From the IMG/VR virus record IMGVR_UViG_2537562189_000007: DNA of 34,565 bases; one strand, given 5' to 3'. Position 1 is the stretch's first letter; the number at the start of each line of letters is the position of its first letter. Position numbers and translations under genes: made by a program. Below, piece by piece: positions 5,917 through 30,354 of the stretch. The notes beneath the pieces were generated by a model that was given only the letters and a program-made list of their open reading frames with translations, did no database searches and was not told the DNA's origin. The DNA comes from a virus (lineage: Duplodnaviria; Heunggongvirae; Uroviricota; Caudoviricetes).

Positions 5917-5962
5917 AATGCTGTTTCTCCGGACAGCCCCTGTGGGGCTGTTTTTCAGGCAT

Positions 5963-9687: not shown

Positions 9688-11807
9688 AACCAGCCTCCTG
9701 ATGTTATCCATGGATTATCTTCCGCACGCTCCGTCCGCAGTTTTTTCTTCCGGCGACGGCGTTTTTCTGCCCCGGCCGTCAGTTCCGGGGATACCGTTTC
9801 ACCAGAACGCTCCTGCGGGAAGACGAGCCACGTTTCCCGCTGTGCCCAGTCCGGTGCGGAGGGCCAGCGGATCTTTTCATAACCATGCAGAACAGCAAGC
9901 GCATCCGCATAAACCAGCAGGTCAAACGCCTCGTTAGCGCCCCTGCCCGGTTTTCGCCATTTTCCGTCACTGCCGCGCTCTTCATAGGTCAGCTCATCGT
10001 AAAACCACCGCCCCAGCCAGTCGGGAAAGTGGATATAATTCGGCCCTGGTGTGTCACGCCACAGGGCATTATTTACACGGTCCTTAAACGCATCCGTCTG
10101 AACCAGCCACAGCGCAACATCGCCACTGGCTCTGGCACGGCGGGCACTTCTGCCGGTATTATCCGGGAAGGTACGGTTAATCAGCCTGTCACGGCGAAGA
10201 CCATCCCCCTTGAACAGAAACACCCTGTTGCCCAGTCCGTCACTCCGGCAACGACGCCAGAAACGATAGGCGTTATCTGTCACCCCGGCTTCCCCTCCCG
10301 TATCCACCGCCATGGCCATCAGACGCATGCGCACATCCGGATCAGAAGCCAGCGGCCATGTTTTATGGAACACATCCGTCAGCAACAAATCCCAGTCCTC
10401 CGGATATGCCGCCGGATCAACCGGCAGACTTTCACCGTTGGGACTGCAGCGCAGTGAATGCCGGATGTTGTAGCGATCAACAATCCAGCGTTCCCCCTGC
10501 TCTCCGTATCCGGTGATCTGCACAACAAAACGGCGATTTTTACCGCCCTGTACGTCAACCGTTGCCTCAATAAAACGCACACCATCCGGCACAGATCGCC
10601 GGGGAAACGGCTCGGCACGCTGTTCAAGCAGTTCACTTTTACGCTGTTCCGTGGCTGAACGGGGCAGATAGGGTCGTCCGATATCGGTGTTCACCACCGC
10701 TTTCAGGGTCTCTTCACTGCCGGTTCGCTCATACTCTTCTTCTGCCGCCAGCAGTTTAAAAATCAGTTGTTCCCAGGTCTGAAACGCCGCAGCCGGCCCC
10801 TCCATCCAGAATCTCGCTATTCTGGAATTTCGTGGCGTTCCGGTGATACTGCCATCCGCCGCCGCCCGTTCACCTTCACGAAGCCAGATCCCCTGGTTAT
10901 TCAGTTCACGCTTCTGTTCCGGAGCAATCAGGCCGCGGCAGTGCGGACACATCAGGCGGGCCGCCTGCCCGGCAGCCACAAAATCAGGGTTATTCCGGTA
11001 ACCGGTCATGTTATCCATCACCGGCTGAAAATATTCCCCGCAGTGCGGACACGGCCAGTACCACCGGCGGCGGTCTCCCCGGTTATACAGTGACAGGATC
11101 CCCGTTGTTGGCGGTGCCTCATGTGCGCCGCCACAGCGCCATTTGGTGTCAGTGATATCCCGCCCGGGCGAACTTTCGACCAGGGTCATCCCCGAGGACA
11201 TAAAGGTGGTGGTACGCTTTGAGGCCAGGGTGAAGGCATCCCCTTCACCGTCGACGTTCTCAGGAAAACGGTCATAATCCGTCAGCGCCACACGACGGTA
11301 ATCCGAAGAGGAAAATACAGTGATCGACGGCCAGCCAATTTTCAGGAATGAGCCGTCAAGAAACATTTTGTCGTGGACGTTGTTGTCATTACGGGAAGGA
11401 CTGAGGCGCTTACTGACCTCCGGACTGTGGCGAAACGTCCTGGAAAGACGCGTTCTGGAATGCTCACGCGCCTTTGTCTCGGTCATCTGCACCACCAGCA
11501 TATCCGCCGGATCACAGATGATGCCGTACACAATCCAGCCATCAATCAGCCCTTCGGTTTTCCCGGTTCGCGCAGGTCCCACAAACACCACCGCGTCATA
11601 TTCACGGGCTGATAATGTATTAATGGGGTCAATCATATAGGGCGTCAGCGATGACTCCCACGGACCGGAAGTATTGGCTCCCCGTGGTACCCGCATATAA
11701 CGCCTGATGGCTTCCGCTACTGGTAACCGGCCAGGTGGGCGAAACAGCGAGGCCACTTCGCGCCAGATATCGGATGCGCGGCTATGGCTCTCGTTCACCT
11801 GATTCAC
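9684..11807 (-). CDS. Terminase large subunit (lambda gpA family)
   Basis: 707 aa with Walker A-like VFVGPARTGKTE and a zinc-binding CPHCG...CPHC region; GTG start overlaps the small-subunit stop. Confidence 0.9.
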   Translation of the reverse strand: MNQVNESHSRASDIWREVASLFRPPGRLPVAEAIRRYMRVPRGANTSGPWESSLTPYMIDPINTLSAREYDAVVFVGPARTGKTEGLIDGWIVYGIICDPADMLVVQMTETKAREHSRTRLSRTFRHSPEVSKRLSPSRNDNNVHDKMFLDGSFLKIGWPSITVFSSSDYRRVALTDYDRFPENVDGEGDAFTLASKRTTTFMSSGMTLVESSPGRDITDTKWRCGGAHEAPPTTGILSLYNRGDRRRWYWPCPHCGEYFQPVMDNMTGYRNNPDFVAAGQAARLMCPHCRGLIAPEQKRELNNQGIWLREGERAAADGSITGTPRNSRIARFWMEGPAAAFQTWEQLIFKLLAAEEEYERTGSEETLKAVVNTDIGRPYLPRSATEQRKSELLEQRAEPFPRRSVPDGVRFIEATVDVQGGKNRRFVVQITGYGEQGERWIVDRYNIRHSLRCSPNGESLPVDPAAYPEDWDLLLTDVFHKTWPLASDPDVRMRLMAMAVDTGGEAGVTDNAYRFWRRCRSDGLGNRVFLFKGDGLRRDRLINRTFPDNTGRSARRARASGDVALWLVQTDAFKDRVNNALWRDTPGPNYIHFPDWLGRWFYDELTYEERGSDGKWRKPGRGANEAFDLLVYADALAVLHGYEKIRWPSAPDWAQRETWLVFPQERSGETVSPELTAGAEKRRRRKKKLRTERAEDNPWITSGGWL

Positions 11808-12280
11808 ATATCGGCCTCATCACAACAGTCAATGACTGCCTTTTCCAGTGTGTCGCGGATCTCATCAACCACAATCTGTACTTCATTCAGTTGTGATGCG
11901 GTCCACCCCCTGTCCCTCTCCAGCCGGTCAGGCCAGGTTTCCAGTACCTGAACTATCGCTTTCACCACGACAGAAAAGGACCGCCTGACATCACTGACTG
12001 ACACGAGCAGACCGGTTTCCTGCTCAAATTTCAGTCGGTCACGTTCTGACTGGTACCATGCTTTACGCGCATGAGGATCCATTTCCTCGTTATCTACAGG
12101 CAGAGGAGCTTTCATCAGCTCGGCAAGGATATCTGTCAGTCGGTACAGTTTGAGATTGCTCTCATGACCACCGGCTGGGCTTATGTTTTTTACCCGAGCC
12201 GCGACAGTCTGTCGATGAGCACCGGATAATGCAGCCAGTTGGGAAATATTCAGATGCAGATTTTTTAATTCACGATCCAT
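11804..12280 (-). CDS. Terminase small subunit (Nu1-like)
   Basis: 158 aa with N-terminal HTH (LNISQLAALSGAHRQTVAARV), directly upstream of and overlapping the large subunit, about 150 bp from the candidate cosN. Confidence 0.7.
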   Translation of the reverse strand: MDRELKNLHLNISQLAALSGAHRQTVAARVKNISPAGGHESNLKLYRLTDILAELMKAPLPVDNEEMDPHARKAWYQSERDRLKFEQETGLLVSVSDVRRSFSVVVKAIVQVLETWPDRLERDRGWTASQLNEVQIVVDEIRDTLEKAVIDCCDEADM

Positions 12281-17171: not shown

Positions 17172-17367
17172 GAATCCTCCCGGCCGGGATAATGTTGTGA
17201 GTCAGATAAGGGGCGGGCTGAAGTCCGGAAGTTACAGGACAATGACAGAAGGAAGACTACAGCCCGCAATACGAAAAAGGCCGCGCAGTTGCGCAGAGTG
17301 ATTACTGTCGGGTATTATTCGCCAGCTGAAAAATTGATTACTTCACGTTTTGTTGTTTATTCCTTGC

Positions 17368-17397
17368 TGCCCGCGTCTCCCGGCGCGGGCTTTTTTT
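17368..17397 (+). terminator. Intrinsic terminator (plus strand)
   Basis: GCCCGCGtctcccggCGCGGGC followed by TTTTTTT. Confidence 0.55.
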
Positions 17398-17427
17398 GCA
17401 TGTAAAAAGGCTCCTGCGATGAGGAGC
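17397..17427 (-). terminator. Intrinsic terminator (minus strand)
   Basis: Minus strand AGGCTCCTcatcgcAGGAGCCT (8-bp stem) followed by TTTTT; back-to-back with the plus-strand terminator. Confidence 0.5.
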
Positions 17428-17456
17428 CTGGATATATGCCTAATCTCTGTATACAG

Positions 17457-17650
17457 CATGATGCCGGGTGCCTCCCGGTGAATTCTGCAATGACCAGACA
17501 GAATCCGCAACTTGCCTATACAATACGCAACCAAACATCTGTCATTATGCCCCTCCGCTCAGGGGGATTCATCATGCAGGATTTTTTTAACAAATGCTCA
17601 GCCAGACAGGCAACCGTCAACTGACTGAATTGTGAGTGATTTAACATTTC
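17457..17650. repeat. Tandem direct repeat, copy 1 (period ~269 bp)
   Basis: Shares with copy 2 the blocks catg(a/g)tgccgggtgcctcccggtga, atgcccctccgc(t/a)cagggggattca(t/c)catgc and ttttaacaaat(g/a)ctcag...gacaggcaac(c/t)gtcaactgactgaattgtgag; the middle ~70 bp is diverged. Confidence 0.6.
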
Positions 17651-17674
17651 ACTGCCCGGTGCCTTCCCCTCATT

Positions 17675-17697
17675 AAAAAGCCCCTCCGGAGAGGGGC
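17675..17697 (-). terminator. Intrinsic terminator between the two repeat copies
   Basis: Palindrome GCCCCTCcggaGAGGGGC preceded on the plus strand by AAAAA, so the minus strand has hairpin plus TTTTT. Confidence 0.55.
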
Positions 17698-17725
17698 TAA
17701 AGCCGCGTATCTGTATCATCATGCG

Positions 17726-17916
17726 CATGGTGCCGGGTGCCTCCCGGTGAGTTCAGTATCAGCACCTGAACCCGCACCAGATAAGGGATATAACCAACCA
17801 CCTGTCGCTGATATGCCCCTCCGCACAGGGGGATTCACCATGCCAGTTTCTTTTAACAAATACTCAGTCTGACAGGCAACTGTCAACTGACTGAATTGTG
17901 AGACATTTAAAATTTT
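17726..17916. repeat. Tandem direct repeat, copy 2
   Basis: See copy 1; begins 269 bp after it with the same conserved blocks. Confidence 0.6.
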
Positions 17917-18005
17917 CGGGGCATGACTGATACCCGGCTAACCACCTGATGCTTCCTTTTTTAGCAACAAACAGGTCCACCAAAGTGAGACAGAAAAAAT
18001 AAGTG

Positions 18006-18082
18006 TGGCGCGTTGTACTGGATTCGAACCAGTGACCGATTGCTTAGAAGGCAATTGCTCTGTCCGGCTGAGCTAACAACGC
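18006..18082 (-). tRNA. argO: tRNA-Arg (anticodon UCU)
   Basis: Minus strand folds as a 77-nt cloverleaf GCGTTGT/ACAACGC acceptor, anticodon loop CUUCUAA, T-loop GGTTCGAATCC, encoded CCA. Confidence 0.8.
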
Positions 18083-18095
18083 TGAATACCGATAA

Positions 18096-18172
18096 TGGAC
18101 CGCCATCGAGGACTCGAACCCCGCGCAACCAGCTTCGAAGGCTGACGCTCTATCCCGATGAGCTAATGGCGG
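18096..18172 (-). tRNA. argN: tRNA-Arg (anticodon UCG)
   Basis: 77-nt cloverleaf with acceptor CCGCCAT/ATGGCGG, anticodon loop CUUCGAA, T-loop GGTTCGAGTCC, encoded CCA. Gene symbol by synteny with the ileZ-argN-argO cluster. Confidence 0.7.
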
Positions 18173-18181
18173 TATGTGATA

Positions 18182-18257
18182 TGGTGGCCCTTGCTGGATT
18201 TGAACCAGCGACCTGGCGATTATGAGTCGCTCGCTCTCACCACTGAGCTAAAGGGCC
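18182..18257 (-). tRNA. ileZ: tRNA with CAU anticodon, ileX-like (tRNA-Ile2; Met not excluded)
   Basis: 76-nt cloverleaf GGCCCTT...AAGGGCC-A-CCA, anticodon loop CUCAUAA; overall close to E. coli ileX as recalled. Confidence 0.65.
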
Positions 18258-18297
18258 GAGTGCAGGATAATAACGGTACGTAACTAATCCTGCAATA

Positions 18298-19356
18298 TCA
18301 TCCGTTCTGACTGGCTAAATCCTGAACTTCCCTGACCGTCTGCTCAAAACGTTCAGTCTCCAGCTCAACACCAGTTGCACGACGCCCCAGTGCCATCGCG
18401 GCTTTGGCTGTCGAACCCGACCCCATGAAAAAATCTGCAACCAGGTCCCCCGGACGACTGCTCGCGCTGATTATCTGCTGCAGCATTTCTGCCGGTTTTT
18501 CGCACGGATGTTTCCCGGGATAGTACTGCACCGGTTTATGCGTCCACACATCGGTGTACGGCACCTGCGCCGTCACGCCAAAATACCGCCGCTGATGCTT
18601 ATATTCACTCTGCAGTTCCGCATACTGCCGGTTCAGTGAAGTATACGTCTCCAGCAGCTGGTGGTGGGGCTTCTCCAGTTCACCCCGCTGATGCTTCTCT
18701 TCTGCCACCCGGGCAAACAGCGCCTGTAATTTCAGATAATCACTTTCGTTCGGCAGTTGCCACTGACTGGCACTGAACCAGTGCGACACCATGTTTTTCT
18801 TTCCTGTGGCATCCACTATCTGTTTTGCCGTTATCCCCAGGGCAGCACGCGCATCACGAAAGTAAGCAATCAGCGGAGCCATCACATGCTGTTTCAGTGC
18901 CCTGCCCTTCGCCTCATACCCGGCATCTTTCGGACGATACGGCCCCTGATAATGTTCCGCGAACAGAATGCGCTCTGTGGCGGGGAAATACGCCCTCAGG
19001 CTTTCCTTGTTGCACCCGTTCCAGCGTCCGGACGGCTTCGCCCAGATAATATGGTTCAGCACACTGAAGCGTTCACGCATCATGATTTCAATGTCAGATG
19101 CCAGGCGATGGCCACAGAACAGGTAAAGACTTCCGGCAGGTTTCAGCACCCGCCAGAACTGCGCAAGACACTGGTCCAGCCACTTCAGGTAATCATCGTC
19201 GCCCTTCCACTGGTTATCCCAGCCCTCAGGCTTCACTTTAAAGTACGGCGGATCCGTGACTATCAGGTCAACAGAATTTTCGGGTAACGACCGGATAAAT
19301 TCCAGGCAGTCGGCGTTGATTAACTCACAACTGGATATTTTTACAGTGTTAAACAT
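18298..19356 (-). CDS. DNA methyltransferase (N6-adenine/N4-cytosine, beta class)
   Basis: 352 aa with motif IV DPPY near the N-terminus (LIVTDPPY) and AdoMet motif I near the C-terminus (DFFMGSGST). Confidence 0.85.
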   Translation of the reverse strand: MFNTVKISSCELINADCLEFIRSLPENSVDLIVTDPPYFKVKPEGWDNQWKGDDDYLKWLDQCLAQFWRVLKPAGSLYLFCGHRLASDIEIMMRERFSVLNHIIWAKPSGRWNGCNKESLRAYFPATERILFAEHYQGPYRPKDAGYEAKGRALKQHVMAPLIAYFRDARAALGITAKQIVDATGKKNMVSHWFSASQWQLPNESDYLKLQALFARVAEEKHQRGELEKPHHQLLETYTSLNRQYAELQSEYKHQRRYFGVTAQVPYTDVWTHKPVQYYPGKHPCEKPAEMLQQIISASSRPGDLVADFFMGSGSTAKAAMALGRRATGVELETERFEQTVREVQDLASQNG

Positions 19357-22519: not shown

Positions 22520-22537
22520 TATTGTCTCTGATTTCTG

Positions 22538-22565
22538 TTGTCGTCAACAGGCAGCGTGCTATCAT
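22538..22565 (+). promoter_or_regulatory. Candidate sigma70 promoter for the parDE moron
   Basis: TTGTCG - 16 nt - TATCAT about 35 nt upstream of the ParD ATG. Confidence 0.3.
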
Positions 22566-24070: not shown

Positions 24071-24415
24071 TCACTCTCCTTCTATGCGAATACCAGCAGC
24101 AGTCAGTGCGGCATTGACCTCATCAGCGTAGTAGTACGTTAATCCACTTGATGATTTAGCCAGCTTGAATGGTTCTGGTAACTTCACTATGCGGGACTCC
24201 TGCTCGTCGATACGCTGTTTTGCTTCCTCCAGTTCATCCAGCAAATCAGCGATAATATCCACTTCACGATGACGGATTTCACGCTTAAACGCAGCCAAAG
24301 CTGCATCACAATCCTGCTCAGCGTTTGGACTGTCTGGTTTCTCCTGATACCACGCCAGCATCGACTGATAGTTTTGTGCCGCCTCACGCAGCGCCTGATA
24401 ATTAATCCCACTCAC
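24071..24415 (-). CDS. Hypothetical coiled-coil protein
   Basis: GTG at 24415 preceded by AGGAGG; ORF track start 24442 would overlap the DUF4406 gene. Confidence 0.4.
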   Translation of the reverse strand: MSGINYQALREAAQNYQSMLAWYQEKPDSPNAEQDCDAALAAFKREIRHREVDIIADLLDELEEAKQRIDEQESRIVKLPEPFKLAKSSSGLTYYYADEVNAALTAAGIRIEGE

Positions 24416-24707
24416 TGGTTGCCTCCTGGAAAATAACTGCATGCCCCAGTTTCTCCGCCAGTGCCAGTTCTGCCTTAGCGCCTGCCGACCGCTGCCAGCC
24501 TTTCAGCATATAAACCGCATCCACACAACGAATCATTGCCATGCAAATATCCATGTAATGTGGCTGAGTCAGCCCGTCCGGAAGTACTGACGGGTTTAAA
24601 ACGGTATGCCCTTCCCGTTTCAGTGCTTCTTCCGCCTTGTGAAATGCCTCGCGGTTGAAATTTTCATATCCCGTCATTGGACCGGCGATATAAATTCTCA
24701 CCCTCAC
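24402..24707 (-). CDS. DUF4406 / nucleoside 2-deoxyribosyltransferase-like protein
   Basis: 101 aa, VRIYIAGPMTGYENFNREAF... pattern; GTG start preceded by AGGAGGG. Confidence 0.55.
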   Translation of the reverse strand: MRVRIYIAGPMTGYENFNREAFHKAEEALKREGHTVLNPSVLPDGLTQPHYMDICMAMIRCVDAVYMLKGWQRSAGAKAELALAEKLGHAVIFQEATSEWD

Positions 24708-24958
24708 GCCTGAACCCTCCTGTCGAAATAAACGTAGTTATTCACTATGCGCAGCGGCATGCCTAATTTTCTGGCAATTTCCCTTCTTTGCATGCCTCTC
24801 TGATGCAGTTGCCGCGCCTGCTCAATATCACGCTGAGAATATTTTGCTGACTGGTGAAAATCACCACGTAACATCATGCTGATGCCCAACTCCCGTGCCT
24901 TCGTTCTCACTGCCGCTTCAGTTCGTCCGATAAGTGCGCCAATGCTTTTTACCTTCAT
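24704..24958 (-). CDS. Small HTH DNA-binding protein
   Basis: Internal ATG 24958 (MKVKSIGALIGRTEAAVRTKARELG...RREIARKLGMPLRIVNNYV), two HTH-like segments. Confidence 0.4.
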   Translation of the reverse strand: MKVKSIGALIGRTEAAVRTKARELGISMMLRGDFHQSAKYSQRDIEQARQLHQRGMQRREIARKLGMPLRIVNNYVYFDRRVQA

Positions 24959-25017
24959 TGTTCCCGCGCACTGCCGGAGTATCAGAATTTCAGCCCGGCA
25001 CCACGTCTTCCACCCAC

Positions 25018-25734
25018 TCACCGCTGCTGTTCTCTGGTGGCGGTAATATCCCGGAGAATATCCCGGCACTTGTTCAGCTCCCGCAGCGCGGCGCAGACTC
25101 GCTCCCACTTCTGAACCTGACCTTTTGCCCGGCGCAGCTCGCGGTTAGCCACATGCAGCGATGGTAGAATCAGGTCATCTGCTTTCGTTTCGGTGACCGA
25201 TGGCTGTAACTTCACAATGTCTTCCACGATTTCTGTTTTCATTTCTTCCTGTGTCGTCGTTTCCTGGACTGGTAACGCAACACCTGCTGGCTGAGGAAAG
25301 GCTTTACCATCGGTTTCCGCTACGGATGCAGCTTCCGGCTCTGCCGGTAAATCAGCGCCCGGTATGCAGTAACGAAATTTACCGCCCTGATTTACGCGAA
25401 TCAGACGCCCTTTGCTGATTGCCATGGCCAGCGATGAATTCGCCCGGCGGGAGGTAATCCCGAACATAAGTGCCAGCTCATCCGCCGTTTGTGGGCCATG
25501 TTGTTCAATCGCCTCAGTCAGCATTTGCGCTGTCACTTTCGGTACCGGTGACACTGGTTCACTTTCACCTGCCTGAGTCAGCCACCACATCGACCCCTTG
25601 TTATCCGCTTCACCACGGCGCTTCAGTTTCCACAGTTCGTTGACCGCATCTTCACGGCTGATTCCAAGGCGGGCCGCCACTACCTGTGAAGAGGCTCTTT
25701 TCAGTGCTTTCAGTGCGTCAAATACGGTTTCCAT
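25018..25734 (-). CDS. Hypothetical phage protein with N-terminal winged-helix-like region
   Basis: ATG 25734 preceded by GGAGGAAA ([31 protein letters not shown]...); C-terminal coiled coil. Confidence 0.45.
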
Positions 25735-25767
25735 TAAAATTTCCTCCGACAAAATCGTTTCCCAGAT

Positions 25768-26430
25768 TCAAATAAAACCAGCAGCCTTCCGGCGTTCGTA
25801 TTCCTGTTTCAGCCGTTCAATTGGCGTTGGCCCTTGCGGGTGTTTCGCCCCTTCCAGTTGTCGTCGCACTGGCGGAACACTCATCCCGTTACCAACATGC
25901 TTTGCCCATTTCGTCAGTTGCCGTTCCGCAAGTCGTTTTAACTCACCCTGCGTCATCTGGCGCTCAATCCCTCTGGTACGCATTTCGAGGCAGATGTGGT
26001 ACAGCACAGGCTGTGGCCACGGGTATTTATCACTCCCGTCGTATCGCCAGGATTCATTGCGCCAGCGCCGGTACTCTTCCATCACGGCATCCACCGTAAG
26101 ACCAAATGGATTTGCCCCACTCTCCGAAATCAGTGCAACAAACTCAGCCAGGTCCGGGGGCCACGTTTCACCCGCCCGGCAGCGGTCCATGCACTGACGG
26201 CAGACCAGACGGATTTGCTGTTCAGTCATCGCACCAATCTGGGCAATCCAGAGCTTCGAAGGTGCGGCCCCGTTCTTCTGAGTCCAGCGGTTCGAATACA
26301 CCTCCCCCATAAGCTCCCACAGCTTCCAGGCCGTTTCCGTTGCTGATAAATCCGTTGTCACGTTCCCACTGTTCGCGTGCTGCCCGGATTTCCTGAACTG
26401 CCCGTGATGCCGTGCCACCTGATGCTGCAT
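25768..26430 (-). CDS. Replication protein P-like (helicase loader)
   Basis: 220-aa ORF downstream of the O-like gene with lambda P-like segments (YPWPQPVLYHICLEMRTRGIERQMTQGELKRLAERQ); start uncertain because the first ~70 codons overlap the O-like gene. Confidence 0.55.
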   Translation of the reverse strand: MQHQVARHHGQFRKSGQHANSGNVTTDLSATETAWKLWELMGEVYSNRWTQKNGAAPSKLWIAQIGAMTEQQIRLVCRQCMDRCRAGETWPPDLAEFVALISESGANPFGLTVDAVMEEYRRWRNESWRYDGSDKYPWPQPVLYHICLEMRTRGIERQMTQGELKRLAERQLTKWAKHVGNGMSVPPVRRQLEGAKHPQGPTPIERLKQEYERRKAAGFI

Positions 26431-27259
26431 GGCTTACCCCCTTGCTGACTGGTTTTACCTGTGCCCAGACGTGCTGCACGTGACGGGCAAATTTCTGCTC
26501 CCACTGAACCTGCGTGAAAACCTTCCCCTCTGCCATCCAGTAATCCCGGAATGCGGCAAGCTCAGCAGGTGTAAATTCCGGCTCAGGCAGAGCCATACCC
26601 CACACTGCTGCCCGTTGTCGAAAATCCGGCGACGGCTGCCAGACAGTAGTCATCGAAAATTTCCCGATGGGTTCGCTCAGGCCGTCCAGGTATTCAGGTT
26701 CGGCTGTCTGCAACGGCGCACCATTCGACTCACTGGTCGGAATACTCTCGCGCGCGTTATGTGTGGGGTTTAATTCTGTATCTGTATCTTTATCTGTCGT
26801 GACTTGTCGTGACAGATGCGTGACACGTCGTGACTCATCGTGACAATCAGCATTATGTTTCCGCAGCTTTTCCCGCTCCCGCTGCGCTCTCTTACGCTCT
26901 GCCGGGGATTTTGCCGTTTGCGAAACGTTACCATTGTCCTCTTTCAGCACCTGACGTTTTTCCCATCCGGAAATAAGGTCACCATCCAGAACCCGCCCCT
27001 GCATTGCATGCAAAATTGAATCAATTACGTCTTCCGTCACATCAAGCGCACTTGCTAAATCTTCCGTCGTGACATCAATGTGACCACGTAGTGACACGCC
27101 GTGACATGTCGTGACATTTCGTGACGCGCTCACCAGAAGGTGGATATACACTGCCATCACTGTTGCGATTGGCTGTCCTGATACCCTGGCAATCGTTCGC
27201 CACTTGGGGTCATTTGGCATGTCATGCCACAATCTGAGCCAGGCATTAGCCATACTCAC
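26222..27259 (-). CDS. Replication initiator (lambda O-like), carrying ori-type iterons
   Basis: 345 aa at the O position after ydaS/ydaT-like genes; two arrays of CGTGAC direct repeats at helical periodicity inside the coding sequence. Confidence 0.55.
   Translation of the reverse strand: MSMANAWLRLWHDMPNDPKWRTIARVSGQPIATVMAVYIHLLVSASRNVTTCHGVSLRGHIDVTTEDLASALDVTEDVIDSILHAMQGRVLDGDLISGWEKRQVLKEDNGNVSQTAKSPAERKRAQREREKLRKHNADCHDESRRVTHLSRQVTTDKDTDTELNPTHNARESIPTSESNGAPLQTAEPEYLDGLSEPIGKFSMTTVWQPSPDFRQRAAVWGMALPEPEFTPAELAAFRDYWMAEGKVFTQVQWEQKFARHVQHVWAQVKPVSKGVSHAASGGTASRAVQEIRAAREQWERDNGFISNGNGLEAVGAYGGGVFEPLDSEERGRTFEALDCPDWCDD
26777..26844. repeat. Iteron array 1 (5 x ~10.4-bp CGTGAC repeats) with adjacent tctgta repeats
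   Basis: CGTGAC ends at 26803, 26813, 26824, 26834, 26844; preceded by tctgtatctgtatctttatctg. Confidence 0.6.
27044..27124. repeat. Iteron array 2 (6 x GTGAC repeats plus one inverted copy)
   Basis: GTGAC ends at 27072, 27083, 27094, 27104, 27114, 27124 (spacing 10-11 bp); inverted CGTCAC at 27044..27049. Confidence 0.6.
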
Positions 27260-27321
27260 CTCTTCTGATACCGAACTTTACCCACGAACTTCCGGAAGAA
27301 ATCCGGTATAAATATTGTTGG

Positions 27322-27747
27322 TCAATGCACAACAACTGCATTACCAGGCTGACCACCACTGTTAGTCAGGGTGCCCCAGGCGATCGCTACAGCGACAAAA
27401 TCATCCACATCTTTCACCAGCCGATCCCGTCGTTCGACGATCTCCCGGTAATATTCAGAACTGTGACTGCGCATACGGGCCACCAGCAAAGGCGGCATCG
27501 CCTTTTCGATCGCCGGTAACAGCGCCTGAATTTTTTCAACAGCATCAGACGTGTCCTTCTCCACCCAGCGGAAAATTTTCTGGGTATTACGAGCCAGGGC
27601 TTCCGGATGGCTGTCGTCGTACAGTTCCGGGAACGTCATCCCCAGCTCGAAATAAATCCGGGCTATTTCAGCTGCGGGAACTTTCTCACCATCAGGATGT
27701 GCCCAGGCATTCATCGCCATGCGGATGTGTTCATGCTTGATTTTCAT
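27322..27747 (-). CDS. ydaT: YdaT-like regulator
   Basis: 141 aa beginning MKIKHEHI and ending VVVH, resembling Rac YdaT as recalled; downstream of ydaS-like gene. Confidence 0.65.
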   Translation of the reverse strand: MKIKHEHIRMAMNAWAHPDGEKVPAAEIARIYFELGMTFPELYDDSHPEALARNTQKIFRWVEKDTSDAVEKIQALLPAIEKAMPPLLVARMRSHSSEYYREIVERRDRLVKDVDDFVAVAIAWGTLTNSGGQPGNAVVVH

Positions 27748-27750
27748 GAA

Positions 27751-28032
27751 TCAACCTCCATCAGCCTTTTTGGTGTTAAGTTCATATTTGTGACGTGAAG
27801 GGGACGTGATTCCAGTGTATTCGGGCCATATAAGCTCCCAGTCATTAGGTCTCAATTCTCGTCTTGTAACATGTCCTCCAGTTTCTGCTTCTATCATCAA
27901 CGCACGAACAGGAGACACAGGTGAAGTTCCAGATGCCATTTGGGACAAGAAAGACGGAGACACACCAAGATTGGTCGCAAATTTTTTTGCTTCTCCAGTT
28001 TTTAATGATTTGATGAATTCCTTTAGCGTCAT
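27751..28032 (-). CDS. ydaS: YdaS-like Cro-type HTH regulator
   Basis: 93 aa with HTH and ...GHVTRRELRPNDWELIWPE; first gene of the rightward operon, divergent from the repressor genes. Confidence 0.65.
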   Translation of the reverse strand: MTLKEFIKSLKTGEAKKFATNLGVSPSFLSQMASGTSPVSPVRALMIEAETGGHVTRRELRPNDWELIWPEYTGITSPSRHKYELNTKKADGG

Positions 28033-28067
28033 AATTTTTATCTCAGCACATTTAGAACAAGTAAAAG

Positions 28068-28095
28068 TTTATACACAACTAAATAAACCAGTCAA
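28068..28095 (-). promoter_or_regulatory. Candidate pR-like promoter for ydaS, overlapped by an inverted-repeat operator
   Basis: Minus strand TTGACT - 16 nt - TATAAA; inverted repeat GTTTAT(N10)ATAAAC at 28067..28088 covers the -10 and spacer. Confidence 0.45.
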
Positions 28096-28099
28096 GTAT

Positions 28100-28128
28100 T
28101 TGCTTATTTTGCGATTACTAAAGATAAT
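28100..28128 (+). promoter_or_regulatory. Candidate pRM-like promoter giving a leaderless repressor mRNA
   Basis: TTGCTT - 17 nt - GATAAT; predicted start ~7 nt downstream coincides with the A of the ATG at 28135; no SD sequence. Confidence 0.4.
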
Positions 28129-28134
28129 GTATGT

Positions 28135-28506
28135 ATGGAAACAAAAGAGATTCGGCGTTTACGCCTCAAAGAGTGGTTCAAAGACAGGACTTTGCCGCCT
28201 AAAGAGAAAAGTTACTTATCTCAGTTAATGAGCGGTAAAGCTACGTTTGGCGAAAAGGCAGCTAGACGTATTGAACAAACATATGGGATGCCTGGGGGAT
28301 ATCTTGATATTGAACCAGAAGACATAACAGAGTCTCCATCATCAAGATCTATAGCATTAACCCCTAACCAATTAGAATTGCTACAAATATTTAGTGCTTT
28401 CCCTGATAATGAGCAGCAGGAGATCATAAAAGAACTAAAAAACAAAAAAGAGGCTATGGAAGATCTTGTCGCACGTTGGTTGGCACGACAAGGTCGCCGA
28501 GCCTGA
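28135..28506 (+). CDS. HTH repressor-like protein, paralog of the downstream PaaR2-like regulator
   Basis: 123 aa; N-terminal HTH; C-terminal 45 aa (LTPNQLELLQIFSAFPDNEQQEIIKELKNKKEAMEDLVARWLA) closely parallels the C-terminus of the next gene. Confidence 0.6.
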   Translation: METKEIRRLRLKEWFKDRTLPPKEKSYLSQLMSGKATFGEKAARRIEQTYGMPGGYLDIEPEDITESPSSRSIALTPNQLELLQIFSAFPDNEQQEIIKELKNKKEAMEDLVARWLARQGRRA

Positions 28507-28525
28507 CGGGATATATAGATATCAG

Positions 28526-28987
28526 ATGGGCGTACTCGAAATTAGTGCTCTTAGAATTAAGATGCTTCTATTGGCAAAAGGCTGGAGCCAAGCAGGACTT
28601 GCGCGCAGAATTGGTATTGCTCAACAATCCGTGCAACGGTGGGTTTGTGGTATCTCAAGCCCTACGGCAGCTAATCTAGATAAACTATCTGAAGTAACGG
28701 GACTTCCTCAGTATTGGTTTTTCTTACCATTAAATGAAGAAAAAAAAGACAGGGCACAGGATATATTAAAAATAACCCCTAATCAAAAGGAACTACTTCA
28801 AACATTTGAGGCATTTCCAGAGGAAGATCAACAGCAAATGCTTAAAGATATGAAGGAGAAAAAAGAAGCAATGGATCGTATAGTTGCAAGGTGGTTAGCA
28901 GCACAACAAAAAGTCAACCAAGCAGAATACCAGCACTTACAAAACGAGGTTCACCATGAACACAGCCCTTTCACCGATGGTTTCTGA
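28526..28987 (+). CDS. paaR2: PaaR2-like HTH transcriptional regulator
   Basis: Internal ATG 28526 (MGVLEISALRIKMLLLAKGWSQAGLARRIGIAQQSVQRWV...); directly precedes the antitoxin-toxin pair, as in three-component paaR-paaA-parE systems. Confidence 0.65.
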   Translation: MGVLEISALRIKMLLLAKGWSQAGLARRIGIAQQSVQRWVCGISSPTAANLDKLSEVTGLPQYWFFLPLNEEKKDRAQDILKITPNQKELLQTFEAFPEEDQQQMLKDMKEKKEAMDRIVARWLAAQQKVNQAEYQHLQNEVHHEHSPFTDGF

Positions 28988-29147
28988 ATTTGAAACTGTC
29001 GAGCAAGAAAACAGTTACAACGAATGGCTGCGTGCGAAAGTAGCAGCGAGCCTTGCAGATCCGCGCCCAGCAATTCCCCATGACGAGGTTGAGCGTAGAA
29101 TGGCAGAACGCTTTGCTAAAATGCGCAAGGAACGGAGTGAGCAGTAA
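28956..29147 (+). CDS. paaA2: PaaA2-like antitoxin
   Basis: 63 aa (MNTALSPMVSEFETVEQENSYNEWLRAKVAASLADPRPAIPHDEVERRMAERFAKMRKERSEQ), GAGG RBS; stop overlaps toxin start (TAAATG). Confidence 0.7.
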   Translation: MNTALSPMVSEFETVEQENSYNEWLRAKVAASLADPRPAIPHDEVERRMAERFAKMRKERSEQ

Positions 29148-29435
29148 ATGTTACCCGTGTTATGGCTTGAAAGCGCAGATACCGACTTGGATGATATAAC
29201 CAGCTATATTGCACGCTTTGACATAGATGCGGCAGAACGTTTATGGAAACGCTTAAGGACTTGCGTTCAGCCATTATCTGAGCATCCGTATTTATACCCG
29301 CCAAGTGACAGAGTGCCAGGTTTGCGTGAAATTGTAGCTCACCCCAATTACATTATTCTGTACCGAGTGACAATTTCAGGCATTGAAATTGTTAACGTAG
29401 TTCACGCCCGCCGACAGTTCCCTGTAACACCTTAA
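29148..29435 (+). CDS. parE2: ParE-family toxin (ParE2-like)
   Basis: 95 aa with ParE/RelE-like features (LPVLWLESADTDLDDITSYIARFD...IVNVVHARR). Confidence 0.75.
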   Translation: MLPVLWLESADTDLDDITSYIARFDIDAAERLWKRLRTCVQPLSEHPYLYPPSDRVPGLREIVAHPNYIILYRVTISGIEIVNVVHARRQFPVTP

Positions 29436-29452
29436 TCCCCCTAAAGCAAAAC

Positions 29453-29482
29453 CTTCCCCCTCTCAAGAGGGAGGGTTATTCC
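29453..29482 (+). terminator. Possible intrinsic terminator after parE2
   Basis: C-rich/G-rich hairpin (ccttccccctc tcaa gagggaggg) followed by ttatt; weak U-tract. Confidence 0.3.
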
Positions 29483-29627
29483 CGCCCATCAGTTAAGTTA
29501 GATATTGACCGTTTAGTTTATTTTTGTATAAACTAATTTCACCAACCCACCCTGCCCCACAGAACGCCAGGCAATACTTCGAGTTACCCGGCAGTGGTCA
29601 GGGGTTAAGTAGCCAGCCCGAGGCGTA

Positions 29628-29656
29628 TGAACATGACGGCGGGAACACTTTATATA
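29628..29656 (+). promoter_or_regulatory. Candidate sigma70 promoter
   Basis: TGAACA - 17 nt - TATATA, about 55 nt upstream of the 50-aa ORF. Confidence 0.3.
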
Positions 29657-29712
29657 ACAGCGCAGCAGGTTTTTAGTTCCGCGCCCCGGCGTTAAGGGGA
29701 AATGAGGTCAAC

Positions 29713-29865
29713 ATGGATACGCTCAATCTTGGCAACAACGAATCTCTGGTATGCGGTGTGTTCCCTAACCAGGACGGCACGTTTACCGCGATGACGTATA
29801 CCAAAAGTAAAAAGTTTAAAACCGAAGCTGGCGCGCGTCGCTGGTTAGCCAGAAACACTAACTGA
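29713..29865 (+). CDS. Hypothetical small protein (50 aa)
   Basis: ATG with GAGG 5 nt upstream; MDTLNLGNNESLVCGVFPNQDGTFTAMTYTKSKKFKTEAGARRWLARNTN; not in the ORF track. Confidence 0.3.
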   Translation: MDTLNLGNNESLVCGVFPNQDGTFTAMTYTKSKKFKTEAGARRWLARNTN

Positions 29866-30354
29866 TTAGCACCAGTAAAAACAGGTTGCCACTGGTTAAT
29901 TTACCCTGAAAAGTCAGGGCATAACACGAAAGCGCACGGCGAAGTTCGTATATCTGTACGGCGTCGTTAAATTTTCTTCGACCGTGCACTTCCGGTTGTG
30001 GCAATCCGCGAAATGGCGCGGCGGTAAGTATGGCTGGGGTTTCCTCCATTGCTCCAGAAAATGCACCGGGTTGTCAGGTTGACCATACGCTTAAGTGACA
30101 GCCCCGCCACAATACCCATGTGTAGTCTTTGGTGGCATCAGTTCTACTCCGTGACTGCTCTGCCACCCTTTTTAAAGTGAATTTTGTGATGCGGTGAATG
30201 CGGCTAAGCGCACGCGGAACAGTTAAAACCGTAAAGTGGTCTTTTACTGGCGTAACAGACATCAACTAACAATCCGGCGTTAATTGTTAACTGGTTAACG
30301 TCACCTGGAGGCACCAGGCACCACATCACAAAATTCATTGTTGAGGACGCGATA

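Follow-up and report, generated by a model that had tools for sequence, protein, structure and literature searches.

A lambdoid immunity region of the PaaR2/YdaS/YdaT type with a second repressor gene, of another subtype, between paaR and paaA

The three-gene operon paaR2-paaA2-parE2 was described in the cryptic prophage CP-933P of Escherichia coli O157:H7 (Hallez 2010; Jurenas 2021, PMC8630535; YdaT structure, PMC9986795). There, paaR-paaA-parE lies in a lambdoid immunity region, opposite ydaS and ydaT (Jurenas 2021, PMC8630535). The PaaR2/YdaS/YdaT region is one of a small number of immunity regions other than that of lambda known in detail, and is a model for a toxin-antitoxin (TA) pair wired into a bistable phage switch. 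The Gifsy repressors GfoR, GfhR and GtgR are non-cleavable and controlled by antirepressors, which can act on heteroimmune repressors (Lemire 2011, PMC3121763). Here we describe a locus in the IMG/VR virus record IMGVR_UViG_2537562189_000007 (Duplodnaviria; Heunggongvirae; Uroviricota; Caudoviricetes), a stretch of 34,565 nucleotides (nt) whose whole length is called the window below. It is a lambdoid immunity region of the PaaR2/YdaS/YdaT type in which two repressor genes, named reg1 and reg2 in this work, stand in tandem before paaA and parE (Table 1). The PaaR2/CI equivalent is reg1 and not reg2; both are small non-cleavable repressors of the PaaR/Gifsy (GfoR/GtgR) family, and reg2 is of a different subtype. 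As far as our searches show, the four-gene tandem is a genuine, conserved and apparently undescribed variant of the published PaaR2 system. With a probability of roughly four in ten, reg2 may be a captured second repressor that acts in trans on promoters outside the prophage.

The locus shares with CP-933P the order ydaT-ydaS, the divergent paaR-...-paaA-parE, the leaderless geometry of the repressor promoter PRM and a PL-like promoter with an operator motif past parE. Divergent ydaS and ydaT, the same motif type at PR/PRM and at the PL after the TA pair, and replication genes past ydaT were all found. The TA and YdaT proteins are at least 90% identical to the characterised CP-933P counterparts. 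The paaA product has 58 of 62 residues in common with PaaA2 (PDB 3zbe, about 94%), and the parE product is about 91% identical to ParE2 (PDB 5cw7_B) over 93 amino acids (aa). As in systems of the RAE2 type, there is a ParE2-like toxin, a short PaaA2-type antitoxin without a DNA-binding domain and a separate PaaR that comes first in the operon. Such systems have exactly three genes, with paaA directly after paaR, whereas in the window reg2 intervenes and makes a four-gene variant. In the usual E. coli layout, paaA begins about 20 nt past a lone paaR of 123 aa (loci L002, of the CP-933P type, and L003). In a three-way DNA alignment, the window equals L003 plus about 430 base pairs (bp) placed directly after the paaR stop codon. 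An earlier note on this DNA, made by a model from the letters and the open reading frames (ORFs), had recognised the three-component paaR-paaA-parE layout and an order with one regulator more than the published one; both points are borne out by the PaaA2 and ParE2 matches, the PaaR2-type reg1 and the extra 430 bp. Its remark that the TA pair is fused to the immunity switch is correct but not new, as this was described for CP-933P by Jurenas 2021 (PMC8630535). The TA pair is the published addictive cargo of the paaR operon. A promoter scan found no promoter-like site from the start of reg1 to reg2, nor between reg1 and paaA.

Three features set the window apart from CP-933P. A 153-aa repressor gene stands between paaR and paaA. 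In ydaS and in the operator half on the PR side, the window is of another type, and its immunity specificity therefore probably differs. Finally, the element is complete in morphogenesis and lysis genes, unlike the cryptic CP-933P.

The products of reg1 and reg2 share a tail but differ in their heads. BLASTP aligned residues 45-119 of reg1 with residues 53-127 of reg2 (40% identity and 67% positives over 75 aa, ungapped, E 9e-19) and gave no alignment of the N-terminal parts; overall, reg2 is about 30% identical to reg1. More than 12 tail positions are conserved across both subtypes, and the DNA of the shared 45-codon core is 67% identical (91/135). The pairwise alignment that the earlier note had proposed as a check thus recovered the C-terminal homology it had claimed, beside heads with no detectable similarity and a strong divergence at the DNA level. 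Its description of the heads as unrelated holds for BLASTP similarity but not in the wider sense. Both proteins match phrog_5736 over nearly their full length, and the heads are therefore strongly diverged helix-turn-helix (HTH) versions of one broad family, not unrelated folds. Pfam recognises HTH_3 in reg2 only, not in reg1. The AlphaFold2 model of reg2 has a five-helix head (residues 1-67) with a predicted local distance difference test score (pLDDT) of 83-92, a low-confidence linker, a tail with a helix, a turn and a long helix (residues 85-127, pLDDT 54-67) and a disordered stretch of 25 residues at the end (pLDDT <50). The low score of the tail is expected, because an oligomerisation module was modelled as a monomer. 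A fold search with this model returned only heads of the XRE, 434, P22-C2 and SinR type, and the reg2 tail had no informative match among solved structures.

The origin of reg2 can be followed through its relatives. A search of 5.8 billion proteins found relatives of 132-133 aa and 51-69% identity in E. coli, Salmonella, Klebsiella and Raoultella. At three E. coli loci (L004-L006) the relative is the only repressor, placed opposite cro/ydaT and directly upstream of paaA-parE, and in Rahnella, Klebsiella spallanzanii, Pectobacterium and Arsenophonus (L019-L022) it is likewise the only such gene. The tail core of reg2 is 81% identical to those of stand-alone repressors in the CI position of other prophages. 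The corresponding values, counted by hand on one alignment, are about 62% for reg2 against reg1 and about 73% for reg1 against PaaR2. Each tail is thus nearer to its own subtype, and the two lineages must have split before they became neighbours. Copies made by duplication in situ would be each other's closest relatives, and reg1 and reg2 are not: against about 30% between the two, reg2 has 66-69% identity to stand-alone repressors elsewhere. The earlier note's view of duplicated paralogs is therefore not supported. Furthermore, the spacer between reg2 and paaA and the first codons of paaA (MNTALSP) match stand-alone loci of the reg2 type and not those of the PaaR2 type (MNRALSP). DNA of the other subtype from reg2 to the start of paaA points to recombination between heteroimmune prophages and not to local duplication. 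Most simply, the paaR end of one immunity type was joined illegitimately to the repressor start of another, with homologous DNA rightward.

Among GenBank phages, reg2 resembles GtgR of Gifsy-1/2 (36% identity over aa 6-117, E 2e-14). The two align over head and tail and are of similar size, Pfam shows no S24 peptidase domain in reg2, and the relatives of reg2 hold the CI position. DicA of the Qin prophage gave a weaker alignment than GtgR, with 27% identity, and reg1 is linked to the Gifsy-type repressors only through the shared tail and phrog_5736. The Gifsy phages have one repressor per immunity region, against two in the window.

The evidence that reg1 is the resident repressor comes from its head, its place and its operators. 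Residues 1-62 are 85% identical (E 2e-31) to the PDB chains 7nkv and 8c3k, which bear the name 'Phage repressor protein CI', and the 62 matched residues of these chains are identical to the start of the 123-aa gene of L002 that precedes a PaaA2-identical start. The chain 7nkv probably represents the N-terminal domain of PaaR2, presumably in agreement with De Bruyn et al. 2021. Over its whole length, reg1 is 75% identical to the CP-933P-type PaaR of L002. A PRM-like promoter was found with its -35 element TTGCTT at 28100-28105, a 17-nt spacer and its -10 element GATAAT at 28123-28128, only 6 nt before the ATG of reg1. Such a leaderless arrangement was demonstrated for paaR2 (PMC8630535), and reg1 is probably translated in the same way from PRM. 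We regard reg1 as the resident repressor because it has a PaaR2 head, adjoins the divergent region, shows the leaderless PRM geometry and has operators that are nearly unchanged in L003, which lacks reg2.

These data also bear on the suggestion of the earlier note that the extra regulator could be the true CI-like repressor, arisen by an old local duplication. The homologous tails and the tandem position agree with it, and the PaaR2 binding sites in the operator region are incompletely defined in the literature, which leaves some room for a reg2 site there. However, reg1 is the PaaR2 orthologue at PRM, PaaR2-type motifs are present at both operator and PL and are nearly unchanged in two genomes without reg2, and the whole of reg2 groups with stand-alone repressors of other prophages. 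This explanation is highly improbable and is largely refuted by the comparison.

As a side observation, E. coli Z1323CEC0012 (L011, about 2410-2420) has a 1-nt deletion in a run of G that cuts reg1 just past its DNA-binding head, with reg2, paaA and parE all intact. It could be a natural mutant of reg1 without a tail or a homopolymer sequencing error.

Overall, few genomes have the tandem layout, yet within this immunity type it is the rule. Of 5426 complete E. coli genomes, about 3000 have matches to parts of the region, and only 17 match over its full length. A ydaS-operator-reg1 segment like that of the window was found in 19 complete genomes, 17 with reg2 and two without (STEC17-183 and NCTC9112). 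DNA coding for the reg2 recognition helix was found in nine viral contigs and one metagenome contig, and all ten have the order ydaT-ydaS/reg1-reg2-paaA-parE; three metagenome contigs found through P0003 are likewise tandem. No stand-alone repressor with the reg2 head was detected in the protein search, in GenBank phages, in one genome per species or in viral and metagenome contigs.

Substitution patterns indicate that reg2 is a maintained gene under purifying selection, with a constraint somewhat weaker than that on reg1. Ratios of nonsynonymous to synonymous divergence (dN/dS) were calculated by the Nei-Gojobori method among six tandem variants. Codons 1-127 of reg2 gave 0.13-0.40, mostly 0.15-0.25, with dS up to 0.46, and the values were 0.06-0.28 for reg1, 0.02-0.06 for paaA and 0.03-0.25 for parE. 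In reg2, synonymous changes (12-27 per pair) are in significant excess, with Fisher p from 1e-4 to 1e-7. Its HTH is nearly invariant among tandem variants, and the recognition helix is invariant among those compared. The reading frame is intact in the inspected tandem loci (L001, L008-L013 and other extra contigs), except L047.

The edges of reg2 are less stable. The end '...AAQKGRRA', common to the whole family, is kept in GF60 (132 aa) and replaced in the other tandem variants. SCU-171 ends in QQKVT after 131 aa with its stop kept, and a metagenome variant has 139 aa. In the L009 group, a 1-nt deletion ahead of the SCU-171-type stop makes the frame read 32 nt into paaA, giving 153 aa. The window has a TAG-to-CAA change and a different 1-nt deletion, which lead to the extended frame that it shares with the L009 lineage, with the reg2 stop 32 nt inside paaA (28956-28987). 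The read-through end is derived and is not the normal C-terminus of the family; the extension, about 25 aa, is poorly conserved and predicted to be disordered. In the other variants, the spacer before reg2 has 30-34 nt with a weak AAGAG, against 19 nt without a Shine-Dalgarno sequence in the window, where translation of reg2 may depend on re-initiation after reg1. The start of reg2 was placed at the ATG at 28526, since the spacer indels are not multiples of three. A 173-aa ORF with a TTG start at 28466 was rejected on these 11-15 nt indels and because the homologues begin at ATG. The overlap of reg2 with paaA, which ends the stretch compared with L008 and L009 (window 28890-28987), might be under selection, for instance through coupling to the translation of paaA.

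This variation could mean that reg2 is a passenger, left over from a swap of the left half of the immunity region, enclosed by an essential repressor on one side and an addictive TA pair on the other, and now useless. The junction can be explained by a single illegitimate join past the reg1 stop and homology on its right side, and Jurenas et al. proposed that the TA pair disfavours rearrangements here (PMC8630535). The indels in tail and spacer, with reg2 products of 131, 132, 139 or 153 aa, the variant of the window without a ribosome-binding site and the frameshifts in both genes of L047 would also be expected of a useless gene. Against it stand the low dN/dS (well below 1, from pairs with 12-27 synonymous differences), an ORF intact apart from L047 in the inspected loci and the invariant recognition helix. 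The same extended frame was reached by two lineages through different mutations, which is not decay. We consider it quite unlikely that reg2 is only a passenger.

Two side observations concern this part of the operon. In an IMG/VR contig (L047, 6470-7338) reg1 and reg2 both appear frameshifted, and this may be a decaying copy. The paaA gene of the window differs from those of the tandem loci L008, L009 and L013 by a dS of about 0.75, against 0.1-0.3 for the flanking reg1 and reg2, and this indicates that the TA genes underwent a recombination of their own.

The operators of the locus were compared with those of its relatives. A PR-like promoter, TTGACT-18-TAAACT, lies on the minus strand from 28095 to 28066. 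Both the divergent region and the region after parE contain GTTTAG/GTTTAT...ATAAAC repeats that resemble PaaR2 operators, and the promoter pair TTGAC(T/C)-18-TAAACT; the published PR/PL and OL of CP-933P carry similar motifs (PMC8630535). The palindrome at the PL-like promoter, TTAGTTTAT-N6-ATAAACTAA (29513-29536), is also present in L003. Between the window and L003, which has no reg2, the divergent region differs by 2 nt and the PL region is essentially the same. Each stand-alone subtype has palindromes of its own, repeated at the divergent region and after parE. The motifs searched were ACACTTWTAAAGTTA of L004, AAACTGT-N7-ACAGTTT of L005, TTACAC-N7-GTGTAA of L006 and the generalised TTACA-N9-TGTAA; in the whole 34.5-kb window they had zero or chance-level matches. 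Palindromes specific to loci with reg2 were not found between 27300 and 29720, where the scan returned the operators of YdaT and PL, two coding palindromes of chance frequency and nothing else.

From these data we propose the following scheme for reg2. It joined the operon by recombination directly behind the reg1 stop codon, at the place where lambda carries rexAB, and in a lysogen it would be expressed from PRM together with reg1 and the TA pair. It may be a second functional DNA-binding repressor whose targets are not the PR and PL operators of its own prophage. Most likely, it would repress a second class of phage or prophage promoters, and this could lead to extended superinfection immunity or to crosstalk between prophages. 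Release of reg2 and reg1 would probably be common, by one antirepressor as in the Gifsy phages, because the two share the C-terminal domain.

Several points weigh against a captured repressor that acts in trans. The lack of a reg2 site in cis was established with motifs of related subtypes, not with the operator of reg2 itself. Among stand-alone relatives, identity in the head reaches only 68%, and at this level the sampled subtypes already differ in their operators, so that no phage could be named as the presumed target in trans. No antirepressor domain was found among 20 window ORFs scanned. The physical linkage of reg1 to the addictive TA pair could alone explain the co-inheritance of reg2. 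Finally, the window has lost the weak AAGAG ribosome-binding site of the spacer and the KGRRA-type tail, and dN/dS is about twice as high in reg2 as in reg1; together, these give a hint of relaxed constraint or low expression in this lineage.

Other sequences in the window were noted in the course of the motif search. Exact CTGT-N8-ACAG occurs four times (532-547, 5921-5936, 12133-12148 and 22535-22550), against 0.35 expected, with GC-rich spacers; the third match lies within an ORF (11804-12280). A search for LexA boxes was unconvincing. All LexA-box-like matches in the window are within coding regions; the one most like a LexA box (19329-19348) is inside the methylase gene.

A different role is suggested by the shared tail. 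The reg2 product might pair with that of reg1 through a common C-terminal oligomerisation domain and tune the strength, cooperativity or inducibility of reg1, or form with it a complex of two specificities. The similarity of the tails agrees with this (40% identity over 75 aa, about 62% in the core of 45 residues, and over 12 positions conserved in both subtypes), and PaaR2 forms octamers in solution (PMC8630535). The reg2 head is found only beside this type of reg1, and the window and L009 lineages share reg1-like tail residues (TPNQ, KKEAM) that are absent from the stand-alone relatives. However, two genomes keep the reg1/ydaS switch without reg2, which is thus not required; each tail is closer to its own subtype, with no clear homogenisation; and the strong conservation of the reg2 head implies that DNA binding matters, and not just titration. 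We are doubtful about pairing as the role of reg2 and rate it as somewhat unlikely, though it is the main rival of action in trans.

In Bacillus subtilis, SinR-SlrR and SinR-SinI are paralogous HTH_3 repressors with a short helical C-terminal oligomerisation module, whose heteromers alter activity. Pairing of reg1 and reg2 would resemble the SinR-SlrR heteromers, although the sequence relation is limited to the HTH fold and the Sin genes are chromosomal, not phage-borne. A further and unlikely possibility is that mixed oligomers of reg1 and reg2 read two operator alphabets, could bridge the operators of the prophage to sites in other prophages or the host, and have one antirepressor as a common off-switch. 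If so, the mixed-oligomer repressor would be an architecture undescribed for lambdoid switches, and it could affect the induction of toxin phages, since the module sits in the Stx2a prophage of strain RM7190.

Single-chain proteins with two HTH heads and one PaaR-type tail recur in the CI position, which also speaks for pairing, and they would be the fused form of such a mixed oligomer. These repressors (P0030, P0038 and P0043; 244-246 aa) have a lambda-CI-like HTH, a reg2-like HTH and one PaaR-type tail. Their genes (L016 4001-4735 and L017 1512-2246) face cro/ydaT and have HipA_2 and DUF3037 genes downstream. At the operators and PL of these loci there is one type of palindrome, AATAGCAwTGtTATT, in four copies, and no match to the L004-type operator. 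Unlike in the window, the heads are fused, the first one is lambda-CI-like and not PaaR2-like, and the cargo is HipA_2/DUF3037 and not PaaA-ParE. No description of single-chain two-HTH repressors was found in the literature as far as searched, and a literature search on tandem or second prophage repressors gave nothing relevant.

The tandem locus shows a modular repressor family, with interchangeable heads on one oligomerisation tail, and shows that heteroimmune recombination can stack repressors and not just swap them. It is a natural test case for the widening of immunity by a captured repressor and for cross-assembly of related repressors.

All four plus-strand ORFs listed in the earlier note were confirmed at their coordinates. 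Table 1 gives the layout of the locus. The inverted repeat TTGATT-N6-AATCAA at the ydaS/ydaT junction is the operator motif defined for CP-933P YdaT (PMC9986795).

Table 1. Features of the tandem immunity locus (window coordinates)
Feature	Coordinates	Strand or position	Evidence or remark
ydaT, CII-like regulator	27322..27747	minus	Pfam YdaT_toxin; PDB 8bt1 (CP-933P YdaT) E 2e-77; phrog_163 CII-like activator
YdaT operator OM-like inverted repeat TTGATT-N6-AATCAA	27737..27754	ydaS/ydaT junction	palindrome scan; perfect repeat
ydaS, Cro-like regulator	27751..28032	minus	Pfam YdaS_toxin 1.3e-9; phrog_35
Divergent operator/promoter region, 102 bp	28033..28134		putative PR and PRM
reg1, PaaR2 orthologue / CI analogue, 123 aa	28135..28506	plus	head match to PDB 7nkv/8c3k
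Non-coding spacer, 19 nt, without clear Shine-Dalgarno sequence	28507..28525	plus	
reg2, extra repressor of other subtype, 153 aa	28526..28987	plus	Pfam HTH_3 2e-11
paaA antitoxin, 63 aa	28956..29147	plus	Pfam PaaA2 PF21217 1.1e-20; PDB 3zbe/5cw7 E 9e-35
parE toxin, 95 aa	29148..29435	plus	ParE_toxin PF05016 1.2e-16; PDB 5cw7_B E 6e-56
GC-rich hairpin, terminator-like, 3' of parE	29455..29472		
PL-like promoter TTGACC-18-TAAACT	29505..29537	plus	overlaps perfect 9+9 bp palindrome

The window is a complete-looking lambdoid prophage segment. There is an integrase, an exonuclease-domain protein (Rv2179c-like 3'-5' exoribonuclease domain) and, with the immunity genes, O/P-like replication genes; by Pfam, the genes for an O-like protein (DnaT domain) and lambda P lie beyond ydaT at 25768-27259. 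In addition, a nin region, RusA, Q, a methylase, three tRNAs, a holin, a lysozyme and Rz were found, with large ORFs leftward, and an ORF of 658 aa matches annotated SASA-family esterase genes. Stx phages likewise have Q, a methylase, tRNAs and such an ORF. In E. coli O91 RM7190 the tandem immunity module, 99.9% identical, lies within a Stx2a prophage, which gives the module some medical relevance for induction; current understanding is not overturned. Identity of the window with this prophage was considered and rejected, since the match of about 98% is confined to 24394-29866; the window is thus a mosaic relative and not the RM7190 phage itself. No stx genes were found in the 835-bp gap between the tRNAs and the esterase (window 17172-18005); the counterpart region compared with it in RM7190 is 17436-18676 of locus L007.

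A last observation concerns the 3' end of parE, where there is an inverted repeat of 10+10 bp with one mismatch, TGACAATTTC-N7-GAAATTGTTA (29368-29394). Most of the tandem loci conserve it, and it is weaker where reg2 is missing; it lies in coding DNA, and its frequency is compatible with chance.

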